Shown: positions 2,459-62,056 of the stretch, piece after piece
Layout: each line of letters starts with the position of its first letter
Position numbering within the stretch: position 1 is the first letter of the stretch
DNA from: Escherichia coli
GTDB lineage: Bacteria > Pseudomonadota > Gammaproteobacteria > Enterobacterales > Enterobacteriaceae
Strand: one strand, 5' to 3'
NCBI RefSeq assembly: GCF_003018115.1
Contig: NZ_CP027457.1
DNA: 64,000 nucleotides
Notes under the pieces: generated by a model
The model's database searches: none
Told to the model about the DNA's origin: nothing
Seen by the model: only the letters and a program-made list of their open reading frames with translations
Made by a program: the position numbers and the translations under genes

Positions 2459-3219
2459 GAGTTCCCCGCGCCAGCGGGGATAAACCGAAAATTGGGACGC
2501 TAACTCATGGGTCTGGGTAGAGTTCCCCGCGCCAGCGGGGATAAACCGGGAAAAACGCCTGTGGTTGGGGCTGAACCAGGGAGTTCCCCGCGCCAGCGGG
2601 GATAAACCGTCGGCGCGCTCTCTGTAGAGCGGTTGTGTGATGAGTTCCCCGCGCCAGCGGGGATAAACCGTCGTCGGGTCCGACAGGGGTCGGTTGTTCG
2701 CCGAGTTCCCCGCGCCAGCGGGGATAAACCGGCTTAATAAACGAGGAGAATACCGATGTTTTTAAGTTCCCCGCGCCAGCGGGGATAAACCGTTCTTTTA
2801 ATGGCGTCAGGCCCATTACAGAGCGAGTTCCCCGCGCCAGCGGGGATAAACCGTTTTGACGATTATTCTAAAAGTGAAAATAGCAGAGTTCCCCGCGCCA
2901 GCGGGGATAAACCGCACGCTGGAGTGACCGGGTGGCAGAGCATGACGAGTTCCCCGCGCCAGCGGGGATAAACCGCCATTTCATCATGAACGGCGGAAAT
3001 ATCGTGGGAGTTCCCCGCGCCAGCGGGGATAAACCGGTCAGTTCCCGGTTGATATATATGATGAGCATGAGTTCCCCGCGCCAGCGGGGATAAACCGCGC
3101 AATGGCGCGGCGATTGCTCTCGAGATCAAGTGTTCCCCGCGCCAGCGGGGATAAACCGGGTACAAAAGAGGCCCCATTCTGGCAGGGCTCGAGTTCCCCG
3201 CGCCAGTGGGGATAAACCA
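2459..3219 (+). CRISPR. Type I-E CRISPR array, 13 repeats and 12 spacers (queE-ygcE side)
   Basis: 29-bp repeat GAGTTCCCCGCGCCAGCGGGGATAAACCG at 2459, 2520, 2581, 2642, 2703, 2764, 2825, 2886, 2947, 3008, 3069, 3130, 3191 with exact 61-bp period and 32-bp unique spacers. Repeat 6 starts AAG, repeat 12 starts GTG, terminal repeat 13 is degenerate (..CCAGTGGGGATAAACCA). Confidence 0.97.
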
Positions 3220-11455: not shown

Positions 11456-12312
11456 ATATCGCAATTGTGACAATAAATCAGGAGAATGCCGCAATAGCAA
11501 GCTGGCTGGCGGCGCAGGATTTCAGCGGTTGTACCCTGGCGCACTGGCAGATTGAACCTCAGCCTGTAGTGGCGGAACAGGTGCTGGATGCGTTGGTGGA
11601 ACAGTGGCAGCGAACGCCTGCGGACGTTGTTCTCTTTCCGCCGGGAACGTTTGGCGATGAACTGTCGACCCGGCTGGCCTGGCGTTTACATGGTGCAAGC
11701 ATCTGCCAGGTGACTTCGTTAGATATTCCAACCGTAAGCGTGCGCAAATCCCACTGGGGAAATGCGCTAACGGCGACGCTGCAAACAGAAAAACGCCCGC
11801 TATGCCTTTCCCAGGCGCGTCAGGCGGGAGCAGCGAAAAACGCCACGTTGCCCTCTGGAATGCAACAACTGAACATTGTCCCGGGTGCGCTTCCCGACTG
11901 GCTGGTTAGCACAGAGGATCTGAAAAATGTTACTCGCGACCCATTAGCTGAGGCCAGACGGGTGCTGGTGGTGGGGCAGGGCGGAGAGGCAGATAACCAG
12001 GAAATCGCTATGCTGGCAGAAAAGCTGGGAGCCGAAGTGGGCTACAGTCGGGCGCGAGTGATGAACGGTGGCGTTGATGCTGAAAAAGTGATTGGTATTT
12101 CCGGACATCTGCTGGCACCTGAGGTGTGTATTGTTGTTGGCGCTTCTGGCGCAGCAGCGTTAATGGCGGGCGTACGCAATAGCAAGTTTGTGGTGGCGAT
12201 TAATCATGACGCCAGCGCTGCGGTATTTTCACAGGTAGATGTTGGCGTGGTTGATGACTGGAAAGTGGTGCTGGAGGCACTGGTGACAAACATTCACGCA
12301 GATTGCCAATAA
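11452..12312 (+). CDS. ygcQ: Electron-transfer flavoprotein alpha subunit (FixB-like)
   Basis: 286 aa; ATGA overlap with the ygcR stop. Confidence 0.85.
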   Translation: MNIAIVTINQENAAIASWLAAQDFSGCTLAHWQIEPQPVVAEQVLDALVEQWQRTPADVVLFPPGTFGDELSTRLAWRLHGASICQVTSLDIPTVSVRKSHWGNALTATLQTEKRPLCLSQARQAGAAKNATLPSGMQQLNIVPGALPDWLVSTEDLKNVTRDPLAEARRVLVVGQGGEADNQEIAMLAEKLGAEVGYSRARVMNGGVDAEKVIGISGHLLAPEVCIVVGASGAAALMAGVRNSKFVVAINHDASAAVFSQVDVGVVDDWKVVLEALVTNIHADCQ

Positions 12313-12317
12313 CGTGT

Positions 12318-12428
12318 TGCCGGATGATCCTGCCTACGGTTCTGGCCTGGGGACTTGTAGGCCTGATAAGACGCGTCAAGCGTCGCATCAGGCGCTGAAT
12401 GTCGGATGTGGCGTGCGGCCTACAAATC
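12318..12428. repeat. REP/BIME repetitive extragenic palindromes
   Basis: gccggatgatcctgcctacgg ... gtaggcctgataagacgcg...cgcatcaggcgc ... ggatgtggcgtgcggcctac: REP-type palindromic units between convergent ygcQ and ygcP. Confidence 0.75.
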
Positions 12429-12459
12429 AAACCAAATTCAATTGGTTACGATTATCCCG

Positions 12460-13035
12460 TCAAAGTAATTTTTTCGCTAACGTCCAGACCCCGGTATTCG
12501 TGGTGGAAAGCGCCACGACACCCGCGTTAATCGCATTACGCGCATCTTCTTCATCGCACACCAGCCCACCGGCAATCAGCGGTTGGCGGATTTTCTCTGT
12601 CACCCAGCCCAGCACTTTGGGCATACAGCCTGGCAGGATCTCAATACAATCCGGATTCGATTGCGCAACTTGCTTATCAATGTTGTGAAACGAAATTGAA
12701 TCAACAATAAACAGGCGATGAATACAGAAAAAACCTTCCGCTCTTGCCGCTTTCAACATTGAGGCTTTGGTACTGATAATGCCGTCCGCCTCGGTCACCA
12801 GTTTCAAAAACTGAATCACGACTTCTTTATTTGACGCGCCTTCCAGCAAATCAACATGAATAAAAGCATATTTCCCGGCGTTCTTAATCTTTTTAACGAT
12901 ATTACTGATGGTGCAGATATTGCCGTACAACACGGAAATAAACTGGCATTCAGAGTCGATTGCCAGTTGCAGGCTGGCATTATCTTTAACGGCAGCAATC
13001 ACCGGATTCTGGCGGAGCAGGTGTAAGAGGGGCAT
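12460..13035 (-). CDS. ygcP: GlpP-family (glycerol-3-phosphate-responsive type) transcription antiterminator
   Basis: 191 aa; size and family recalled for K-12 YgcP; synteny. Confidence 0.8.
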   Translation of the reverse strand: MPLLHLLRQNPVIAAVKDNASLQLAIDSECQFISVLYGNICTISNIVKKIKNAGKYAFIHVDLLEGASNKEVVIQFLKLVTEADGIISTKASMLKAARAEGFFCIHRLFIVDSISFHNIDKQVAQSNPDCIEILPGCMPKVLGWVTEKIRQPLIAGGLVCDEEDARNAINAGVVALSTTNTGVWTLAKKLL

Positions 13036-18846: not shown

Positions 18847-18896
18847 TCAGCCCGGTCTTGTAGGCCTGATAAGACACGTGAGCGTCGCATCAGGCA
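18847..18896. repeat. REP element between cysI and cysH
   Basis: gcccggtcttgtaggcctgataagacacgtgagcgtcgcatcaggcaag. Confidence 0.75.
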
Positions 18897-19651: not shown

Positions 19652-19817
19652 ATATTGCCGGATAAATTAAACGCCTCTGTCAGAAATGATGGGGGCGTTT
19701 TTATTTTGCGAGCAGCATTCCTGATTTTAAACGTGAACGCCGCTGGAAGAATTATCAGGTATAGAATGGCGTCGGGTGCTTGAGGCTGTCTGGCGTTAAG
19801 CATTCGCGAGGTTCCAG

Positions 19818-19922
19818 ATGGACAAAAGCCCCAGGCGATATTTCTATCAACCTGAGGCTTACGTTCGAACCCAAACAATTCGAATGTTAGTCTCTTCTTT
19901 GCAGGGAGGCAAGACATGCTGA
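19818..19922 (+). CDS. mok-like upstream ORF (34 aa), translationally coupled to hok
   Basis: ATG 19818 with SD gagg 7 nt upstream; stop TGA overlaps the hok start (ATGCTGA). Confidence 0.35.
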
Positions 19923-20068
19923 CAAAATATGCCCTTGTGGCAATCATCGTACTGTGTTGTACAGTACTGGGATTCACGCTGATGGTAGGTGACTCGTTGT
20001 GTGAGTTGAGTATCAGAGAACGTGGTATGGAGTTTAAGGCAGTTCTCGCTTACGAATCGAAGAAGTAG
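19916..20068 (+). CDS. Hok/Gef-family type I toxin (50 aa membrane peptide)
   Basis: [50 protein letters not shown]; hydrophobic N-terminal helix plus the SLCE(I/L).(I/Y)R...EV.A..AYES.K signature of Hok proteins; SD ggagg 6 nt upstream; below the 60-aa cutoff of the ORF track. Confidence 0.8.
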
Positions 20069-20261
20069 CCACCACGCGGGGGTAAAACCCCGCGTACTGA
20101 ATTGTGATGGTTTGGTCTCCTGCACCCTTTTTTAAAATTTATATTTTTTATGTGAATATATAGTCTCTATTTATTATTATGAATTTCAAATGAAAATCAT
20201 TAATTTATTCATAATGTAAATGTTTTATTGGCTGATATATATCACAGATAATTTTTAAAAT

Positions 20262-22358
20262 ATGCGTAAATATCCTTTAAGTTTACTGAAGGATAAAAAT
20301 ATTGTGACTTTTTTTGATTTCTGGGGAAAAACCCGACGCGGCGAGAAAGACGGGGGCGACGACTATCACCTTCTTTGCTGGCATTCGCTGGATGTAGCCG
20401 CGATGGGCTATTTAATGGTTAAAAGAAATTGCTTCGGGCTGGCTGATTATTTTCGTCAATTAGGGATTTCTGACAAGGAACAGGCGGCTCAATTTTTCGC
20501 CTGGTTGCTGTGCTGGCACGATATTGGAAAATTTGCCCGCTCTTTTCAACAACTTTACCTGCCCCCTGAACTCAAGATTCAGGAAAGTGCCAGAAAAAAT
20601 TACGAAAAAATCTCTCATTCAACGCTGGGCTACTGGTTGTGGAATCATTATTTAAGTGAATGTCAGGAGTTACTTCCTTCATCTTCGCTCTCTCCGCGCA
20701 AACTTAGGCGAGTGATAGAAATGTGGATGCCCGTGACGACAGGGCATCATGGTCGGCCCCCTGATCGTATGGATGAATTGGATAATTTTCTGCCTGAAGA
20801 CAAAGCTGCAGCACGAGATTTTCTCCTTGAAATCAAACCACTGTTTCCGCTCATAGAGATCCCCGCATTCTGGGATGATGATGAGGGCATTGAACTTATA
20901 AAACACCTTTCCTGGTATATCTCTGCAACCGTCGTGCTCGCAGACTGGACGGGTTCGTCAACGCGATTTTTTCCACGCGTCGCACACCCAATGGATATTA
21001 AAGGTTACTGGCAGAAAACTTTAATTCAGGCTCAAAACGCCTTAACCGTCTTTCCTCTAAAAGCAAAAGTCGCGCCTTTCAACGGAATTAATACGCTGTT
21101 TCCTTTTATTGAGAATCCGACACCGTTACAGCAAAAGGTGCTGGATCTGGATATCAGCCAGCAAGGACCGCAGTTATTTATTCTGGAAGATGTGACTGGC
21201 GCAGGTAAAACAGAAGCGGCGCTTATCCTGGCGCACAGGTTGATAGCTGCGGGGAAAGCTCAGGGGCTGTTTTTTGGTCTGCCAACAATGGCAACGGCCA
21301 ATGCCATGTACGATCGGCTGGTCAAAACCTGGCTTGCTTTCTATTCGCCAGAATCCCGCCCCAGCCTGGTGCTGGCACATAGTGCCCGCACATTAATGGA
21401 CCGCTTTAATGAATCACTCTGGTCTGGTGATTTAGTCGGGTCAGAAGAACCGGATGAACAAACGTTCAGTCAGGGATGTGCGGCCTGGTTTGCCGACAGT
21501 AACAAGAAGGCGTTGCTGGCTGAAATTGGCGTCGGCACGCTGGATCAGGCGATAATGGCGGTGATGCCGTTCAAACATAATAATCTGCGGCTTCTGGGGC
21601 TGAGTAACAAAATCCTGCTGGCTGATGAGATCCACGCCTGTGACGCTTACATGTCGTGCATTCTTGAAGGGTTGATCGAGCGGCAGGCGCGTGGCGGAAA
21701 CAGCGTTATTTTGCTTTCTGCCACGTTATCTCAACAGCAGCGCGACAAACTCGTCGCTGCCTTTGCGCGGGGTACAGAGGGCCAGCAAGAAGCTCCGTTC
21801 CTGGAAAAGGATGATTACCCCTGGCTGACGCATGTCACGAAATCCGATGTGAACTCACACCGGGTAGCGACGCGCAAAGACGTTGAGCGTAGCGTCAGCG
21901 TGGGTTGGCTTCATAGTGAACAAGAGTGTATTGCGCGTATCGAATCGGCGGTAAGTCAGGGGAAATGCATCGCCTGGATCCGGAATTCTGTCGATGACGC
22001 TATTAAGGTTCATCGTCAGCTGCTTGCCCGCGGCGTCATTCCTGCTTCCAGCCTTTCACTTTTTCATAGCCGCTTTGCTTTTAGCGATCGCCAGCGAATT
22101 GAAACGGAAACGCTGGCACGCTTTGGTAAATATTGTAGTTTACAGAGAGCGTCGCAAGTCATTGTTTGTACACAAGTAATTGAGCAAAGCGTGGATATTG
22201 ACCTGGACGAAATGATCTCCGACCTGGCCCCTGTTGATTTGCTGATTCAGCGAGCAGGACGATTACAGCGGCATATCCGCGATATTAATGGTCAGTTAAA
22301 GCGTGACGTGTTCCCCGCGCCAGCGGGGATAAACCGGGTACACGGATATTCTGTCTAA
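20262..22358 (+). pseudogene. cas3: cas3 (type I-E HD nuclease / DExH helicase), 3'-truncated and fused to CRISPR repeat 1
   Basis: HD-domain motifs (CWHSLDVAA, HDIGKF), Walker A DVTGAGKTEAA, DEAH-type LADEIH; reading frame runs into the first repeat at 22308 (residues VFPAPAGINR encoded by repeat) and stops in spacer 1; about 680 aa of Cas3 sequence against about 890 expected. Confidence 0.85.
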
Positions 22359-22702
22359 AAGTTAACTAGTGTTCCCCGCGCCAGCGGGGATAAACCGACT
22401 GATAACGCCGGAGCCTTCTTTTTCAGCAAGTGTTCCCCGCGCCAGCGGGGATAAACCGAGGTTGACGTTGATTTTGTTCGTTATGTTGCCGTGTTCCCCG
22501 CGCCAGCGGGGATAAACCGACCTCGACAATGACACGGGCGCGAAAACAATCGTGTTCCCCGCGCCAGCGGGGATAAACCGTCGGTGGCTGGATTGAAAAA
22601 GAAGATAATCTGGTGTTCCCCGCGTCAGCGGGGATAAACCGGGCGCACTGGATGCGATGATGGATATCACTTAGAATTCCCCGCCCCTGCGGTAGAACTC
22701 CC
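22308..22702 (+). CRISPR. Type I-E CRISPR array, 6 intact repeats plus 1 degenerate terminal repeat, 6 spacers; no leader
   Basis: Repeat GTGTTCCCCGCGCCAGCGGGGATAAACCG at 22308, 22369, 22430, 22491, 22552, 22613 (61-bp period, 32-bp spacers); repeat 6 carries cgcgTcag; degenerate copy gaattccccgcccctgcggtagaactc at 22674-22702. Confidence 0.95.
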
Positions 22703-33782: not shown

Positions 33783-33797
33783 GTAAGCATCTGTCAG

Positions 33798-33835
33798 AAA
33801 GGCCAGTCTCAAGCGAGGCTGGCCTTTTTCTTTTG
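33798..33835 (+). terminator. rpoS intrinsic terminator
   Basis: aaaggccag-tctcaagcgagg-ctggccttt followed by TTTTTCTTTT. Confidence 0.7.
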
Positions 33836-33901
33836 TTTAGGAAGCTTGTGTTTTTGTCGCCTGGATAAGACACGTCAGCGTCCTACCCGGCAATTTGCAT
33901 C

Positions 33902-34309
33902 CTATGTGTTCATCATCTTGCGCACCAGCTGCACAAACAGCTCCTGCTCTTCTGCACTCAAACGCCCCAAAAATTCCTCATCCACGCTGTCACCAATCGG
34001 TATCGCCGCAGCAAGTATCTTTTCTCCTTCGGCAGTCAGCCAGACAAAGCGTCGCCGCTTATCAGCGGCGTCATGTTCACGTCTGACTAAGCCACGATTC
34101 TCCATTCTTGCCAACATTTCTGCCAACGTTGCTTTGGTGCTGACTGCTGCTTCTATCAGTGCCACCTGTTCGATACCAGGCTTATCAGCAATGGCGCGCA
34201 TCACCGCATACTGTGGTTTGGTCAGGTCAGGTAACTCGTGCTGCCAGCGAGCCGTGTGCTGCTGAAAAAGTTGTCGTAACAGATGGAACGCTTTATTTCG
34301 TAACGCCAT
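33902..34309 (-). CDS. hosA: MarR/SlyA-family transcriptional regulator HosA
   Basis: 135 aa from Met 34309 (SD ggag 6 nt upstream); winged-helix MarR signature; divergent from ecdB. ORF track start 34342 is an alternative. Confidence 0.8.
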   Translation of the reverse strand: MALRNKAFHLLRQLFQQHTARWQHELPDLTKPQYAVMRAIADKPGIEQVALIEAAVSTKATLAEMLARMENRGLVRREHDAADKRRRFVWLTAEGEKILAAAIPIGDSVDEEFLGRLSAEEQELFVQLVRKMMNT

Positions 34310-34424
34310 GTAAACTCCGGGCAAACTATCTGCCGCTATCATAGCGGTTTTTCAGTGACGAAGGGGATGTTGTTACTTTTCAGTGCTTGCCGCAATGAGA
34401 ACAGAGGCGTATTTTAATAATAAC

Positions 34425-34438
34425 GTTCGTATACGAAC
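34425..34438. promoter_or_regulatory. Perfect 14-bp palindrome in the hosA-ecdB intergenic region (candidate HosA operator)
   Basis: gttcgtatacgaac, 18 bp upstream of the ecdB start. Confidence 0.45.
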
Positions 34439-34455
34439 AATTAAGAGAATAAGCA

Positions 34456-35049
34456 ATGAAACTGATCGTCGGGATGACAGGGGCTACCGGTGCGCCTCTT
34501 GGTGTGGCATTACTGCAAGCGCTGCGGGAGATGCCGAATGTCGAGACTCATCTGGTGATGTCGAAGTGGGCGAAAACCACCATTGAACTGGAAACGCCTT
34601 ACAGCGCTCGCGATGTTGCTGCCCTCGCAGACTTCAGCCATAACCCGGCGGATCAGGCGGCGACCATCTCCTCAGGTTCCTTTCGTACCGACGGCATGAT
34701 CGTTATTCCGTGCAGTATGAAAACGCTCGCCGGTATCCGCGCTGGTTACGCCGATGGCCTGGTAGGGCGCGCGGCGGACGTCGTGCTCAAAGAAGGCCGC
34801 AAACTGGTGCTGGTGCCGCGTGAAATGCCGCTTAGCACCATCCATCTCGAAAATATGCTCGCACTTTCACGCATGGGCGTGGCGATGGTGCCGCCGATGC
34901 CTGCCTTTTATAACCATCCCGAAACGGTAGATGACATTGTCCACCATGTGGTAGCCCGCGTGCTGGATCAATTTGGCCTCGAACATCCCCACGCCAGGCG
35001 CTGGCAAGGGTTGCCGCAGGCCCGGAATTTTTCTCAGGAGAATGAATAA
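34456..35049 (+). CDS. ecdB: UbiX-like flavin prenyltransferase (Pad1 / phenolic acid decarboxylase subunit B)
   Basis: 197 aa; MKLIVGMTGATGAPLGV flavoprotein motif. Confidence 0.88.
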   Translation: MKLIVGMTGATGAPLGVALLQALREMPNVETHLVMSKWAKTTIELETPYSARDVAALADFSHNPADQAATISSGSFRTDGMIVIPCSMKTLAGIRAGYADGLVGRAADVVLKEGRKLVLVPREMPLSTIHLENMLALSRMGVAMVPPMPAFYNHPETVDDIVHHVVARVLDQFGLEHPHARRWQGLPQARNFSQENE

Positions 35050-36476
35050 TGGCATTTGATGATTTACGCAGCTTTTTACAGGCGCTTGATGACCACGGCC
35101 AGTTACTGAAAATCAGCGAAGAGGTGAACGCGGAACCGGATCTGGCTGCCGCTGCCAACGCCACCGGGCGTATCGGCGATGGTGCACCGGCGCTGTGGTT
35201 TGATAATATTCGCGGCTTTACCGATGCCCGCGTGGCGATGAATACCATCGGTTCCTGGCAGAACCACGCGATTTCCCTCGGCCTGCCACCAAACACCCCG
35301 GTCAAAAAGCAGATTGATGAGTTTATCCGCCGCTGGGATAACTTCCCGATTGCCCCGGAGCGCCGCGCCAATCCTGCCTGGGCGCAGAACACCGTCGATG
35401 GTGACGAGATTAATCTGTTCGATATCCTGCCGCTGTTTCGTTTAAACGACGGTGATGGCGGTTTCTATCTCGACAAAGCCTGCGTGGTTTCCCGCGATCC
35501 GCTCGACCCAGATAACTTCGGCAAGCAGAACGTCGGCATCTACCGCATGGAAGTGAAGGGCAAGCGTAAGCTCGGCCTGCAACCGGTGCCGATGCACGAT
35601 ATCGCCCTGCATCTGCATAAAGCAGAAGAGCGCGGTGAAGATCTGCCGGTTGCGATCACGCTCGGTAACGATCCGATCATCACGCTGATGGGGGCCACGC
35701 CGCTGAAATACGATCAGTCTGAGTATGAAATGGCAGGCGCGCTGCGTGAAAGCCCGTACCCGATCGCCACCGCCCCGCTGACCGGTTTTGATGTGCCGTG
35801 GGGTTCAGAAGTGATCCTCGAAGGGGTCATCGAAAGCCGTAAACGCGAAATTGAAGGGCCGTTCGGTGAGTTTACCGGGCACTACTCCGGCGGGCGCAAC
35901 ATGACCGTGGTGCGCATCGATAAAGTCTCTTACCGCACCAGGCCGATTTTCGAATCGCTGTACCTCGGCATGCCGTGGACCGAAATCGACTACCTGATGG
36001 GGCCAGCCACCTGTGTGCCGCTGTATCAACAACTGAAAGCCGAGTTCCCGGAAGTGCAGGCAGTAAACGCCATGTACACCCACGGCCTGCTGGCGATTAT
36101 CTCCACCAAAAAACGCTACGGCGGCTTTGCCCGCGCGGTGGGCCTGCGTGCGATGACCACGCCGCACGGTCTGGGCTACGTAAAGATGGTGATTATGGTC
36201 GATGAAGACGTTGACCCGTTCAACCTGCCGCAGGTGATGTGGGCGCTCTCCTCGAAAGTAAATCCGGCAGGGGATTTGGTGCAGTTGCCGAATATGTCCG
36301 TGCTGGAACTCGACCCTGGCTCAAGCCCGGCGGGGATCACCGACAAGCTGATTATCGACGCCACCACGCCTGTCGCCCCGGACAACCGTGGCCACTACAG
36401 CCAGCCGGTGGTGGATTTGCCGGAAACCAAAGCCTGGGCTGAAAAGCTGACCGCTATGCTGGCCGCACGTAAATAA
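35049..36476 (+). CDS. ecdC: UbiD-family decarboxylase (phenolic acid decarboxylase subunit C)
   Basis: 475 aa; UbiD-family size and operon context with ecdB/ecdD. Confidence 0.85.
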   Translation: MAFDDLRSFLQALDDHGQLLKISEEVNAEPDLAAAANATGRIGDGAPALWFDNIRGFTDARVAMNTIGSWQNHAISLGLPPNTPVKKQIDEFIRRWDNFPIAPERRANPAWAQNTVDGDEINLFDILPLFRLNDGDGGFYLDKACVVSRDPLDPDNFGKQNVGIYRMEVKGKRKLGLQPVPMHDIALHLHKAEERGEDLPVAITLGNDPIITLMGATPLKYDQSEYEMAGALRESPYPIATAPLTGFDVPWGSEVILEGVIESRKREIEGPFGEFTGHYSGGRNMTVVRIDKVSYRTRPIFESLYLGMPWTEIDYLMGPATCVPLYQQLKAEFPEVQAVNAMYTHGLLAIISTKKRYGGFARAVGLRAMTTPHGLGYVKMVIMVDEDVDPFNLPQVMWALSSKVNPAGDLVQLPNMSVLELDPGSSPAGITDKLIIDATTPVAPDNRGHYSQPVVDLPETKAWAEKLTAMLAARK

Positions 36477-36486
36477 GGAGAACAAG

Positions 36487-36723
36487 ATGATTTGTCCACG
36501 TTGTGCCGATGAACAGATTGAAGTGATGGCGAAATCGCCGGTGAAAGATGTCTGGACGGTATATCAGTGCCAGCATTGCCTTTATACCTGGCGCGATACC
36601 GAACCGCTGCGCCGTACCAGCCGCGAACATTATCCCGAAGCGTTCCGCATGACGCAGAAAGATATTGATGACGCGCCAATGGTGCCGAGCATCCCGCCGC
36701 TGCTGGCGGAAGGTAAGCGCTAA
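36487..36723 (+). CDS. ecdD: Phenolic acid decarboxylase small subunit D (zinc-ribbon)
   Basis: 78 aa; CPRC...CQHC zinc-ribbon cysteines. Confidence 0.8.
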   Translation: MICPRCADEQIEVMAKSPVKDVWTVYQCQHCLYTWRDTEPLRRTSREHYPEAFRMTQKDIDDAPMVPSIPPLLAEGKR

Positions 36724-36726
36724 ATA

Positions 36727-36757
36727 AAAGGTCCGATGCTCATCGGACCTTTTTATT
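36727..36757. terminator. Bidirectional terminator between ecdD and ygbN
   Basis: aaaggtccgatg-ctc-atcggaccttt followed by TTATT; A-rich on the other side. Confidence 0.7.
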
Positions 36758-60655: not shown

Positions 60656-60679
60656 TTTTTCATTAAGGAATTCAGGGAA

Positions 60680-61453
60680 TTGAACATCAGAACAGGGATG
60701 TGCGCTTTTTTATTGAGCTTAGTGCTGCCTGTACAGGCCACCAGCTTTACCGAATATCTGCCGATGAGTGACAGCGAATACGCGCAAAAGCGGGCGCTGA
60801 AACCTCTCCTGACCATGCCTTATGATGCCGAGCAAAACTGGCATTTTAGAAAAGTCGGCGTTGCTGGCGTGACGCTTGAAAAGATGCCAAATGATGATAG
60901 TGAATGGCAATTGAACGGTAAAGATCGCGCCGGTAAATCCTGGTCTGTGCCTGTGGGGGTGCTGCAAAATATGGCGGGTAATGCGCAACTTTACCGTGCC
61001 GATCTTGATCGTAACGGCATTCAGGATCTGGTTATCTGGCGGGGTATTTCAGGAAATGGTCTGGCACCTAACGCGTTTTTGATTCTGATGACCTTTAATC
61101 AGCAAGGTCGCCCGTGTGTTTTTCAGTCCGATGGTTTTTATACCGCAAGTGAAACTGGCATTGATGATTTGCTGGATTTACAAAGGAATGGCCACACGCA
61201 ATTGCTGGATATGCAGTTTGATTCCGGTTACTGGATAACCAGTCTGTATCAGGTAAAAGACGCCAAATGGCAGCGTGTTCACGGCTGGTTTGGCAAGTTA
61301 AGCTATCCCGCGCTCACGCGTTTTACTTATACCCCCAACCGTAAACTCGTCCTCAAACCCATCGCCGGGCGCGACCCGCAAACGGAAGATCTGGCGCAGA
61401 CGCAGCGTTGCTTGATAAAGGGGGATGTGCTTTATGGGGTGAACCAGAACTGA
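60680..61453 (+). CDS. Secreted protein of unknown function (signal peptide; Asp-rich FG-GAP/VCBS-like motif)
   Basis: 257 aa from TTG 60680, or 251 aa from ATG 60698; N-terminus MCAFLLSLVLPVQA|TSF is signal-peptide-like; motif ADLDRNGIQDLVIW; not in the K-12 hycI-ascB interval as I recall it. Confidence 0.6.
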   Translation: MNIRTGMCAFLLSLVLPVQATSFTEYLPMSDSEYAQKRALKPLLTMPYDAEQNWHFRKVGVAGVTLEKMPNDDSEWQLNGKDRAGKSWSVPVGVLQNMAGNAQLYRADLDRNGIQDLVIWRGISGNGLAPNAFLILMTFNQQGRPCVFQSDGFYTASETGIDDLLDLQRNGHTQLLDMQFDSGYWITSLYQVKDAKWQRVHGWFGKLSYPALTRFTYTPNRKLVLKPIAGRDPQTEDLAQTQRCLIKGDVLYGVNQN

Positions 61454-61523
61454 CTTTTTGCAGAGTGGCTATGAGGGGGATTACGTGCAGACAGACGTCA
61501 CGTTACTACAGAGAGAACAAAGA

Positions 61524-61943
61524 ATGACTGCTAATGCTGCACGCGCTGTTAAAGCAACAAGAGAACTGGTCAATGCAGTCCCCTTTCTGGGAGGCAGTGA
61601 CTCAGAAGATGATTATCGTGAAGCACTGGAACTGGTCGAATATTTGATTGAAGAAGATGACACCAATCCACTTATCGACTTTCTGGCGAGCCGCATTGCA
61701 GAGTATGAAAACAACAACGAAAAGTTTGCAGAGTTCGACAAAGCCGTTGCGGCAATGCCGGTTGGCGTGGCGTTACTTCGCACGTTGATTGATCAACATA
61801 ATCTGACCTATGCGGATTTGAAGAACGAAATCGGCTCTAAATCCCTGGTCAGTCAGATTTTGTCTGGACAACGATCCCTGACAATATCCCACATTAAGGC
61901 ACTTTCAGCCCGATTTGGCGTTAAGCCGGAATGGTTTCTTTGA
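61524..61943 (+). CDS. HigA-family HTH (XRE-type) antitoxin-like regulator, no cognate toxin adjacent
   Basis: 139 aa from ATG 61524 (alternative starts GTG 61485, TTG 61458); layout ...VPFLGGSDSEDDYREALELVEYLIE...NPLIDFLASRIAEYE...FAEFDKAVAAMPVGVALLRTLIDQHNLTYADLKNEIGSKSLVSQILSGQRSLTISHIKALSARFGVKPEWF parallels E. coli HigA as remembered. Confidence 0.65.
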   Translation: MTANAARAVKATRELVNAVPFLGGSDSEDDYREALELVEYLIEEDDTNPLIDFLASRIAEYENNNEKFAEFDKAVAAMPVGVALLRTLIDQHNLTYADLKNEIGSKSLVSQILSGQRSLTISHIKALSARFGVKPEWFL

Positions 61944-61959
61944 TTTTGACTGATGCCAA

Positions 61960-62045
61960 ACCCCAGATTGCCCGATGCGCTGCGCTTATCGGGCCTACAT
62001 GTCGCACGAACTATGTAGGCCGGATAAGGCGTTCACGCCGCATCC
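61960..62045. repeat. REP/BIME palindromic units
   Basis: gcccgatgcgctgcgcttatcgggcctacatg ... gtaggccggataaggcgttcacgccgcatccggca. Confidence 0.75.
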
Positions 62046-62056
62046 GGCACGGTTAC

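Follow-up and report, generated by a model that had tools for sequence, protein, structure and literature searches.

Four sites with REP-type palindromes in a 64-kb stretch of a non-K-12 Escherichia coli genome are very probably ordinary E. coli REPs (palindromic units). Two of them lie close to segments that differ from K-12, namely the hycI-ascB island and the hosA-ecdBCD cassette, and the boundaries of these segments were not made by REPs. A REP-mediated origin of the differences from K-12 is thus largely refuted. In other strains, the same elements are sites of variation in their own right, through the insertion of IS1397 and IS621 and through a series of alleles at the pair of REPs beside ascB. 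The location of REP/BIME elements at gene 3' ends, their variability between strains and their targeting by IS1397 and IS621 are already documented, and K-12 also has the elements at the two shared loci. As a discovery the present result is slight; its value is mainly corrective.

The window, that is, the whole stretch of 64,000 nucleotides analysed here, corresponds to the ygcG-to-ascF region of K-12 in reversed order. It was compared by megablast with 5426 complete E. coli genomes, with MG1655 serving as the K-12 reference, and the region around the first REP cluster was matched in 5425 of them. Relative to MG1655, the window is 97-99% identical and collinear outside two CRISPR arrays and three segments, located at 19918-22610 (cas), 33828-36723 (2.9 kb, hosA-ecdBCD) and 60676-61950 (1.3 kb, between hycI and ascB). 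The exact combination of these three segments was found in none of the 5426 genomes. The second CRISPR array, at 2459-3219 between queE and ygcE, consists of 13 repeats of type I-E with a 61-bp period, and its spacers differ from those of K-12.

The presence of REP-type palindromes had been claimed at four sites, and all four were confirmed as the only significant matches when the whole window was scanned by blastn-short with the y, z1 and z2 consensus sequences of E. coli (Table 1). No further REPs were found in the 64 kb, the remaining matches being 8-11-mers with E values of at least 0.3. The foot motif GTAGGCCNGATAAG occurs in the window in four exact copies, and in five when up to two mismatches are allowed, versus 0.9 expected. 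A GTAG foot opens the units at 12357, 18860 and 62015, and its counterpart CTAC stands at 61995-61998; this conserved foot is not kept in the decayed unit at 33856-33891, where it reads TTGTCGCC. The z1 units fold into a bulged hairpin whose 7-pair foot is separated from the upper stem by a 2x2 internal loop. All REP units are extragenic, lying between annotated genes, and queries containing the y unit match a median of at least 30-31 places per genome. An Rfam scan of the window gave no REP family among its matches, sok being the sole one.

These features resemble those of the E. coli REP family as described for its y, z1 and z2 types (Bachellier; Ton-Hoang et al. 2012, PMC3333891), including a length of 29-37 nt, an imperfect palindrome with a 2x2 bulge, a GTAG/CTAC foot, an extragenic position, a 92-100% match to the consensus and many copies per genome. 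In the four intact units, no departure from the family was found. Three others (12319-12337, 12401-12423 and 33856-33891) are decayed, by deletion of the hairpin tip or by loss of GTAG.

Table 1. Features of the window discussed in the text. Identities and E values of REPs are from the blastn-short scan; the strand of a REP remnant is the one that reads 5'-GTAG first.
Feature	Position	Strand	Details
y-type REP remnant, hairpin tip deleted	12319..12337	-	GCCGGATG joined to ATCCTGCCTAC; 7 nt after ygcQ stop codon; 18/19 bases fit y consensus ends, 15-nt internal gap; 8-mer seed in the scan
Intact z1 REP, between convergent ygcQ and ygcP	12357..12393	+	36/37 identical, E 6e-12; loop TCAA 12376-12379
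Second y-type remnant, internally deleted	12401..12423	-	GTCGGATGTGGCGTG joined to CGGCCTAC; 21/23 bases fit y consensus ends, 11-nt gap (direct sequence reading)
Single z1 REP, cysI-cysH intercistronic spacer	18860..18895	+	34/36 identical, E 2e-11; foot 18860-18870 is a perfect IS621 target
rpoS intrinsic terminator, left cassette junction versus K-12	33796..33829	+	15-pair stem, then T run
Decayed z1-like REP, 3' of hosA	33856..33891	-	GTAG lost, one indel; 19-nt z1 fragment 33864-33882, 18/19 identical, E 1e-3 (partial stretch)
ygbN terminator hairpin, right cassette junction	36723..36757	-	K-12 homology restarts here, AATAAAAGGTCCGATGCTCATCGGACCTTTTTATT
Island gene 1, 251 aa	60698..61453	+	First and last few bases kept in K-12
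Island gene 2, orphan HigA-like helix-turn-helix antitoxin	61524..61943	+	HTH_3, E 2e-9
ACTGA, right copy of 5-bp direct repeat	61949..61953	+	Left copy at 61449; brackets 500-bp K-12 deletion
z2 REP	61970..61998	-	23/25 identical at 61974-61998, E 6e-5; tail ATCGGGCCTAC 61988-61998; CT core 61995-61996
z2-y linker, 16 nt, tail to tail	61999..62014		Inverted relative to K-12
y REP	62015..62048	+	34/34 identical to consensus, E 6e-15; ends 8 nt before ascB stop codon

Together, the z2 and y REPs beside ascB (61970-62048) form one extended composite hairpin (-43 and -46 kcal/mol, z -3.5 and -3.9). By the definitions of Ton-Hoang et al. (PMC3333891), the pair is one BIME-2-type unit, as it combines z2 and y in inverse orientation around a short linker and varies between strains in both linker and units. 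The tandem copies of BIME-2 were not found at this locus, where a single unit is present in the window and in every allele aligned. Moreover, the pair resembles the REPINs, which are hairpin-forming REP doublets mobilised by RAYTs (Bertels and Rainey 2011, PMC3116915), in that it makes one long hairpin and differs in unit content between strains. It is unlike them in that its arms belong to different REP types. No RAYT gene lies within the 64-kb window; the tnpA-REP gene maps between yafL and fhiA (PMC3333891), at a great distance from it.

At least five alleles of the z2-y spacer were distinguished. The K-12 orientation of the linker, with the z2 tail CTTC, is carried by 2847 genomes, and the form of the window, in which the linker is flipped and CTAC is present, is found intact in 450 genomes and interrupted in 196. 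In at least 440 genomes the y palindrome is absent with GTAG kept, the linker is absent in two of the compared loci (L013 and L014), and 726 genomes have the B2 form, in which a foreign gene separates the z2 tail from the y loop. The flip is apparent from the linker 18-mer CATG..CATG, which agrees with the K-12 linker at 17/18 positions when the latter is reverse-complemented, versus 9/18 for the direct comparison. When the y-less alleles (L008, L012 and L015) are aligned with window positions 62015-62051, the empty site reads ...GCGAC(G/A)GTAG^(G)TTAC... (^ marks a joint or cleavage point here and below), and only the palindrome is missing.

The B2 form, exemplified by the ST131-type strain MNCRE44 (L009 4050-4740), has a 0.6 kb insert with a 145-aa gene, whose product shows a weak match to DUF4259 (E 0.004, under the Pfam cutoff). 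This form has lost ascG and ascF along with most of ascB, of which 60 nt at the 3' end remain. One of its breakpoints is at the z2 tail and the other in the y loop, and REPs are therefore not mere bystanders at the z2-y locus. Variability of BIMEs in linker and copy number has been published previously (PMC3333891).

The linker flip is bounded by perfect inverted repeats of at least 10 bp (GGCCTACATG and CATGTAGGCC) that run into the REP stems, so that inversion of a hairpin loop by template switching, or recombination between the inverted repeats, would suffice without any dedicated enzyme. This is the simplest cause of the flip. In general terms, paired REPs act as inverted repeats, and the linker between them may flip, vanish or take up foreign DNA.

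CC^TAC and, in linkers, C^T sites are cut by the REP-associated tyrosine transposase (TnpA-REP/RAYT). The linker flip, the loss of y with GTAG kept and the loss of the linker might accordingly be read as traces of the in vivo activity of this enzyme, and three observations point this way: units and linker are exactly what distinguishes the alleles, GTAG remains at the empty site, from which only the palindrome is missing, and the z2 tail bears the CC^TAC motif. Moreover, TnpA-REP cuts and recombines iREP and linker sites in vitro, and it has been proposed as a source of BIME variability (PMC3333891). Inversion of a duplex is, however, not an obvious outcome for a strand-specific Y1 enzyme, the inverted repeats already explain the flip, and the loss of y is explicable by excision of the hairpin through replication slippage. 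An involvement of TnpA-REP is thus rather improbable, and inversion through the hairpin loop or the inverted repeats is preferred. A flip driven by IS621 was also considered and is unlikely, as the reaction of this element is that of a donor with a target, not of two targets.

The same locus is of interest with regard to IS621, a bridge-RNA-guided element of the IS110 family (Choi 2003; Durrant 2024, PMC11208160). Its natural target is ATCAGGCCTAC, and the target loop of the bridge RNA encodes ATCGGGCCTAC (PMC11208160). Three exact targets, conforming to the 11-nt sequence ATC(A/G)GGCCTAC (ATCRGGCCTAC) with its CT core, are present in the window versus 0.07 expected: each z1 unit has ATCAGGCCTAC, and the z2 tail has ATCGGGCCTAC. 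In the ygcQ/ygcP unit, the perfect target is the z1 foot at 12357-12367, with ATCAGGCCTAC on the - strand. All three sites are empty in the window, in which respect they differ from the z2 site of other strains, where IS621 (about 1278 bp, donor ends ...ACAGTAT^CT^TGTAT...) resides at the CT core.

Alignments with the z2-y allele of the window begin exactly at the CT core in 196 genomes, and IS621 was confirmed at this position in all three of the genomes sampled among them. The joints read ...GGGCCT^TGTATT and ACAGTAT^CTACATG, the CT overlap being present on either side of the element, and two different left flanks are represented in the three carriers. Interruption at the CT core affects about 196/646 flipped alleles versus at most 1/2848 alleles in the K-12 orientation. 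The z2 tail of K-12 reads ATCGGGCCTTC where that of the window reads ATCGGGCCTAC, and this tail change accompanies the linker flip. A tentative reading is that the z2-y pair by ascB is a small switchable hotspot, in which the flip or the tail change from ATCGGGCCTTC to ATCGGGCCTAC sets the access of IS621; at present this is possible but doubtful.

The cluster between ygcQ and ygcP consists of an intact z1 unit and two y-type remnants, the units alternating in orientation as in BIMEs. The remnant at 12319-12337 cannot form a hairpin by itself. The cluster resembles BIME-1 (z1 and y with a long L linker that often contains an IHF site) in pairing z1 with y-type units, in their alternation and in its single copy, and it differs from BIME-1 in that both y units are internally deleted and the linkers measure 19 and 7 nt. 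Because the IHF consensus WATCAANNNNTTR has no match at 12300-12460 and no long L linker is present, the cluster is not a BIME-1; it is a decayed, atypical y'-z1-y' BIME.

This cluster is intact in 4801/5426 genomes, and in about 11% of genomes the alignment breaks inside its z1 REP. A joint in the z1 loop is carried by 285/5426 genomes, the element being annotated as IS1397 family. In strain ECSC054, an IS3-family element with TG...CA ends sits in the z1 hairpin loop with a duplication of TCAA, and the IS1397 joint in locus L005 reads ...GACGCGTCAA^TGAACTG...CAGTTCA^TCAAGCGTC... This agrees with the known target of IS1397, a member of the IS3 family that inserts specifically in the loop of palindromic units (PMC1525189) with a 3-4 bp duplication, here the 4 bp TCAA. 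The window differs from these genomes in that its ygcQ/ygcP site is empty. By targeting REPs, IS1397 (in the hairpin loop, with a 4-bp duplication) and IS621 (at the CT core of ...GGCCTAC) both give rise to variation in other strains.

The single z1 REP between cysI and cysH begins 16 nt past the cysI stop codon and ends 21 nt ahead of the cysH ATG. The first-pass annotation had regarded the REPs as marks of operon boundaries, which does not apply here, as this unit is intercistronic within cysJIH, the operon to which cysI and cysH belong; the other three sites do lie between convergent genes. The REP in this spacer is intact in 5419/5426 genomes, and at most 6/5426 depart from the common form of the spacer. 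Its persistence despite a perfect IS621 target fits selection against polar insertions in an operon. In a rare allele, that of strain N96 (L020 2388-2523), a z2-like and a y REP take the place of the single z1 in the cysI-cysH spacer.

The differences between the window and K-12 have other causes. Beside ascB, the REP pair had been placed at 61960-62045 as the right edge of a two-gene insert. This view has to be reversed: the segment is not an insert, and K-12 has lost an older island of three genes. The full island, as present in locus L007, comprises the 251-aa gene, higB and the higA-like gene. In the window, a stretch of 412 bp with higB and its promoter (L007 2177-2588) is deleted, and the HigA-like antitoxin has lost its partner. 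The form found in the window, with the 251-aa gene and the higA-like gene but without these 412 bp, is covered over at least 80% of its length by about 1330 genomes. Other variants have higB and higA only (L008), a truncated gene 1 with higA (L014 and L015) or gene 1 only (L013), and the island genes are absent from K-12 and L012. In total, at least six deletion variants were recognised across E. coli, several of which end at 61949, an endpoint also seen in L013. No Pfam family was found for the 251-aa protein in a Pfam search; a hydrophobic stretch is present at its N-terminus.

The hycI-ascB spacer of K-12 keeps remains of the island, corresponding to window positions 60686-60701 and 61434-61447. 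The first K-12 deletion runs between two copies of a 9-bp direct repeat, GGGATGTGC (60695 and 61422), and the second is bracketed by ACTGA. From these scars and direct repeats, it follows that K-12 underwent two microhomology deletions of an older island, which removed the 251-aa gene, higB and higA in its lineage. The supposed insert is thus apparently an ancestral, decaying toxin-antitoxin island. Its right-hand deletion endpoint (61949-61953) lies 16 bp ahead of the z2 REP, and the z2-y pair belongs to the flank common to all hycI-ascB alleles. No REP was found on the hycI side of the island, and no deletion endpoint lies inside a REP.

Downstream of rpoS, homology to K-12 ends at 33828, within the rpoS terminator, and is back at 36723, with 8 bp in between in K-12. 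At this locus, a cassette is exchanged between two terminators. The REP reported at 33846-33880, at the edge of the hosA-ecd segment, is a genuine, degenerate REP, located about 10 nt past the hosA stop codon. Rather than being on the shared flank, it belongs to the 2.9 kb cassette, whose left junction is 28 bp away. On the - strand, which is that of the hosA transcript, the remnant folds with -22.6 kcal/mol (z -4.7), and on the + strand with z -1.4; the O157-type allele L011 has an identical copy of it. No REP was detected by blastn-short at the ygbN-side edge.

The arrangement hosA-ecdBCD is known as pattern IV of the o454-nlpD region, K-12 having pattern II, O157 pattern I and B2 pattern III (PMC4209514), and patterns I-IV were all encountered among the genomes compared. 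Strain FEX669 (L010), of pattern III, has a cassette encoding a flavodoxin and an MBL-fold hydrolase, with its own decayed z1-like REP at 915-953, 3' of the first gene. Between the rpoS terminator and the REP, this cassette and that of the window have unrelated DNA, and the REP downstream of rpoS is therefore not a recombination joint shared by the alternative cassettes. The boundaries of hosA-ecdBCD owe nothing to REPs, and the remnant is cargo.

The third variable segment, that of the cas genes, has no REP at its junctions (19918 and 22610) in the blastn-short scan. In the window (20262-22654), a truncated cas3 (698-aa ORF) runs into a six-repeat CRISPR array (22308-22654) by iap, with the loss of casA through cas2. 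In F6326-C1, the closest complete genome, IS421 is located at the cas joint, which suggests that the type I-E interference genes were lost by an IS-associated deletion. The exact structure of this region was found in none of the 5426 complete genomes. Between cysH and cas3, the sok antitoxin RNA was matched by Rfam at 19774-19931 with 113 bits (gathering score 59). Related genomes annotate a Hok/Gef family gene at this site, and the break of K-12 homology at 19918 is at its edge; the stretch is a chromosomal hok/sok-type locus (sokX in K-12).

The first-pass annotation considered REPs at two of the three K-12-variable junctions consistent with REP-associated rearrangement. For the differences from K-12 this does not hold, given that no endpoint lies in a REP; for other strains it does, as attested by IS1397, IS621 and the z2-y alleles. 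A comparison of junctions between strains with and without the segments places the K-12 endpoints at direct repeats or terminators. That the island and the cassette were nevertheless created by REP-mediated recombination or REP-targeted integration is very improbable. Such an origin could appeal to the proximity of REPs, 16-28 bp from one edge of each segment, to the decayed z1-like REPs near the rpoS end of both cassettes, which could hint at an old shared REP, to the documented role of REPs as recombination and IS targets (PMC1525189), and to the B2 form, where a foreign gene did come to separate the z2 tail from the y loop. It is opposed by the internal island scars of K-12, with both deletions bracketed by direct repeats other than REPs, by the lack of REPs at the hycI-side and ygbN-side edges, by the unrelated DNA between the rpoS terminator and the REP, and by a third variable site without a REP.

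The caveat that REPs are simply common proved correct for their position near variable junctions. Among the eight convergent spacers of the window, three have a REP, five differ from K-12 and two do both (one-sided Fisher p=0.71), which also speaks against REP-mediated recombination. When all of the approximately 63 spacers are considered, the association between REPs and variability has a nominal p of about 0.06 in this one window, and a weak real link may exist. The apparent association is no more than would be expected if REPs and indels both gather in 3'-to-3' convergent spacers. It may be that such spacers tolerate extra DNA best, so that both would collect there. Deletion through microhomology in the hycI-ascB spacer, exchange between terminators downstream of rpoS and IS-associated deletion in the cas region are thus the preferred explanations of the three K-12 differences.

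REP DNA is a binding site for gyrase and DNA polymerase I. At the RNA level, REPs would be transcribed as part of 3' or intercistronic RNA, where their G+C-rich bulged hairpins may slow 3'-to-5' exonucleases and set the stability of the upstream message; for the copies in the window, such an RNA-stabilising role is inferred from what is known of the family. That the palindromes are instead Rho-independent terminators or chance G+C-rich hairpins is almost certainly wrong, since, despite their stable folds at gene 3' ends, no T run follows any REP, a terminator scan finds none inside the clusters, consensus matches reach E 6e-15 and the motif occurs in dozens of copies per genome. The only terminator-like sites nearby are the rpoS terminator and a weak site at 61914-61930, at the 3' end of the higA-like gene. 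A literature search on REPs near stop codons and tmRNA found nothing in the collection of papers searched.

Beyond the corrected boundaries, the analysis has a modest by-product, namely a clean natural case of allele-specific IS621 occupancy, that of the flipped z2-y allele, and this is its only mildly new point. The allele series at the z2-y locus is usable for studying how REP doublets change. If the relation between flip, tail change and IS621 is causal, micro-rearrangements of BIMEs or single-base changes would decide which loci are open to an RNA-guided recombinase in natural populations.
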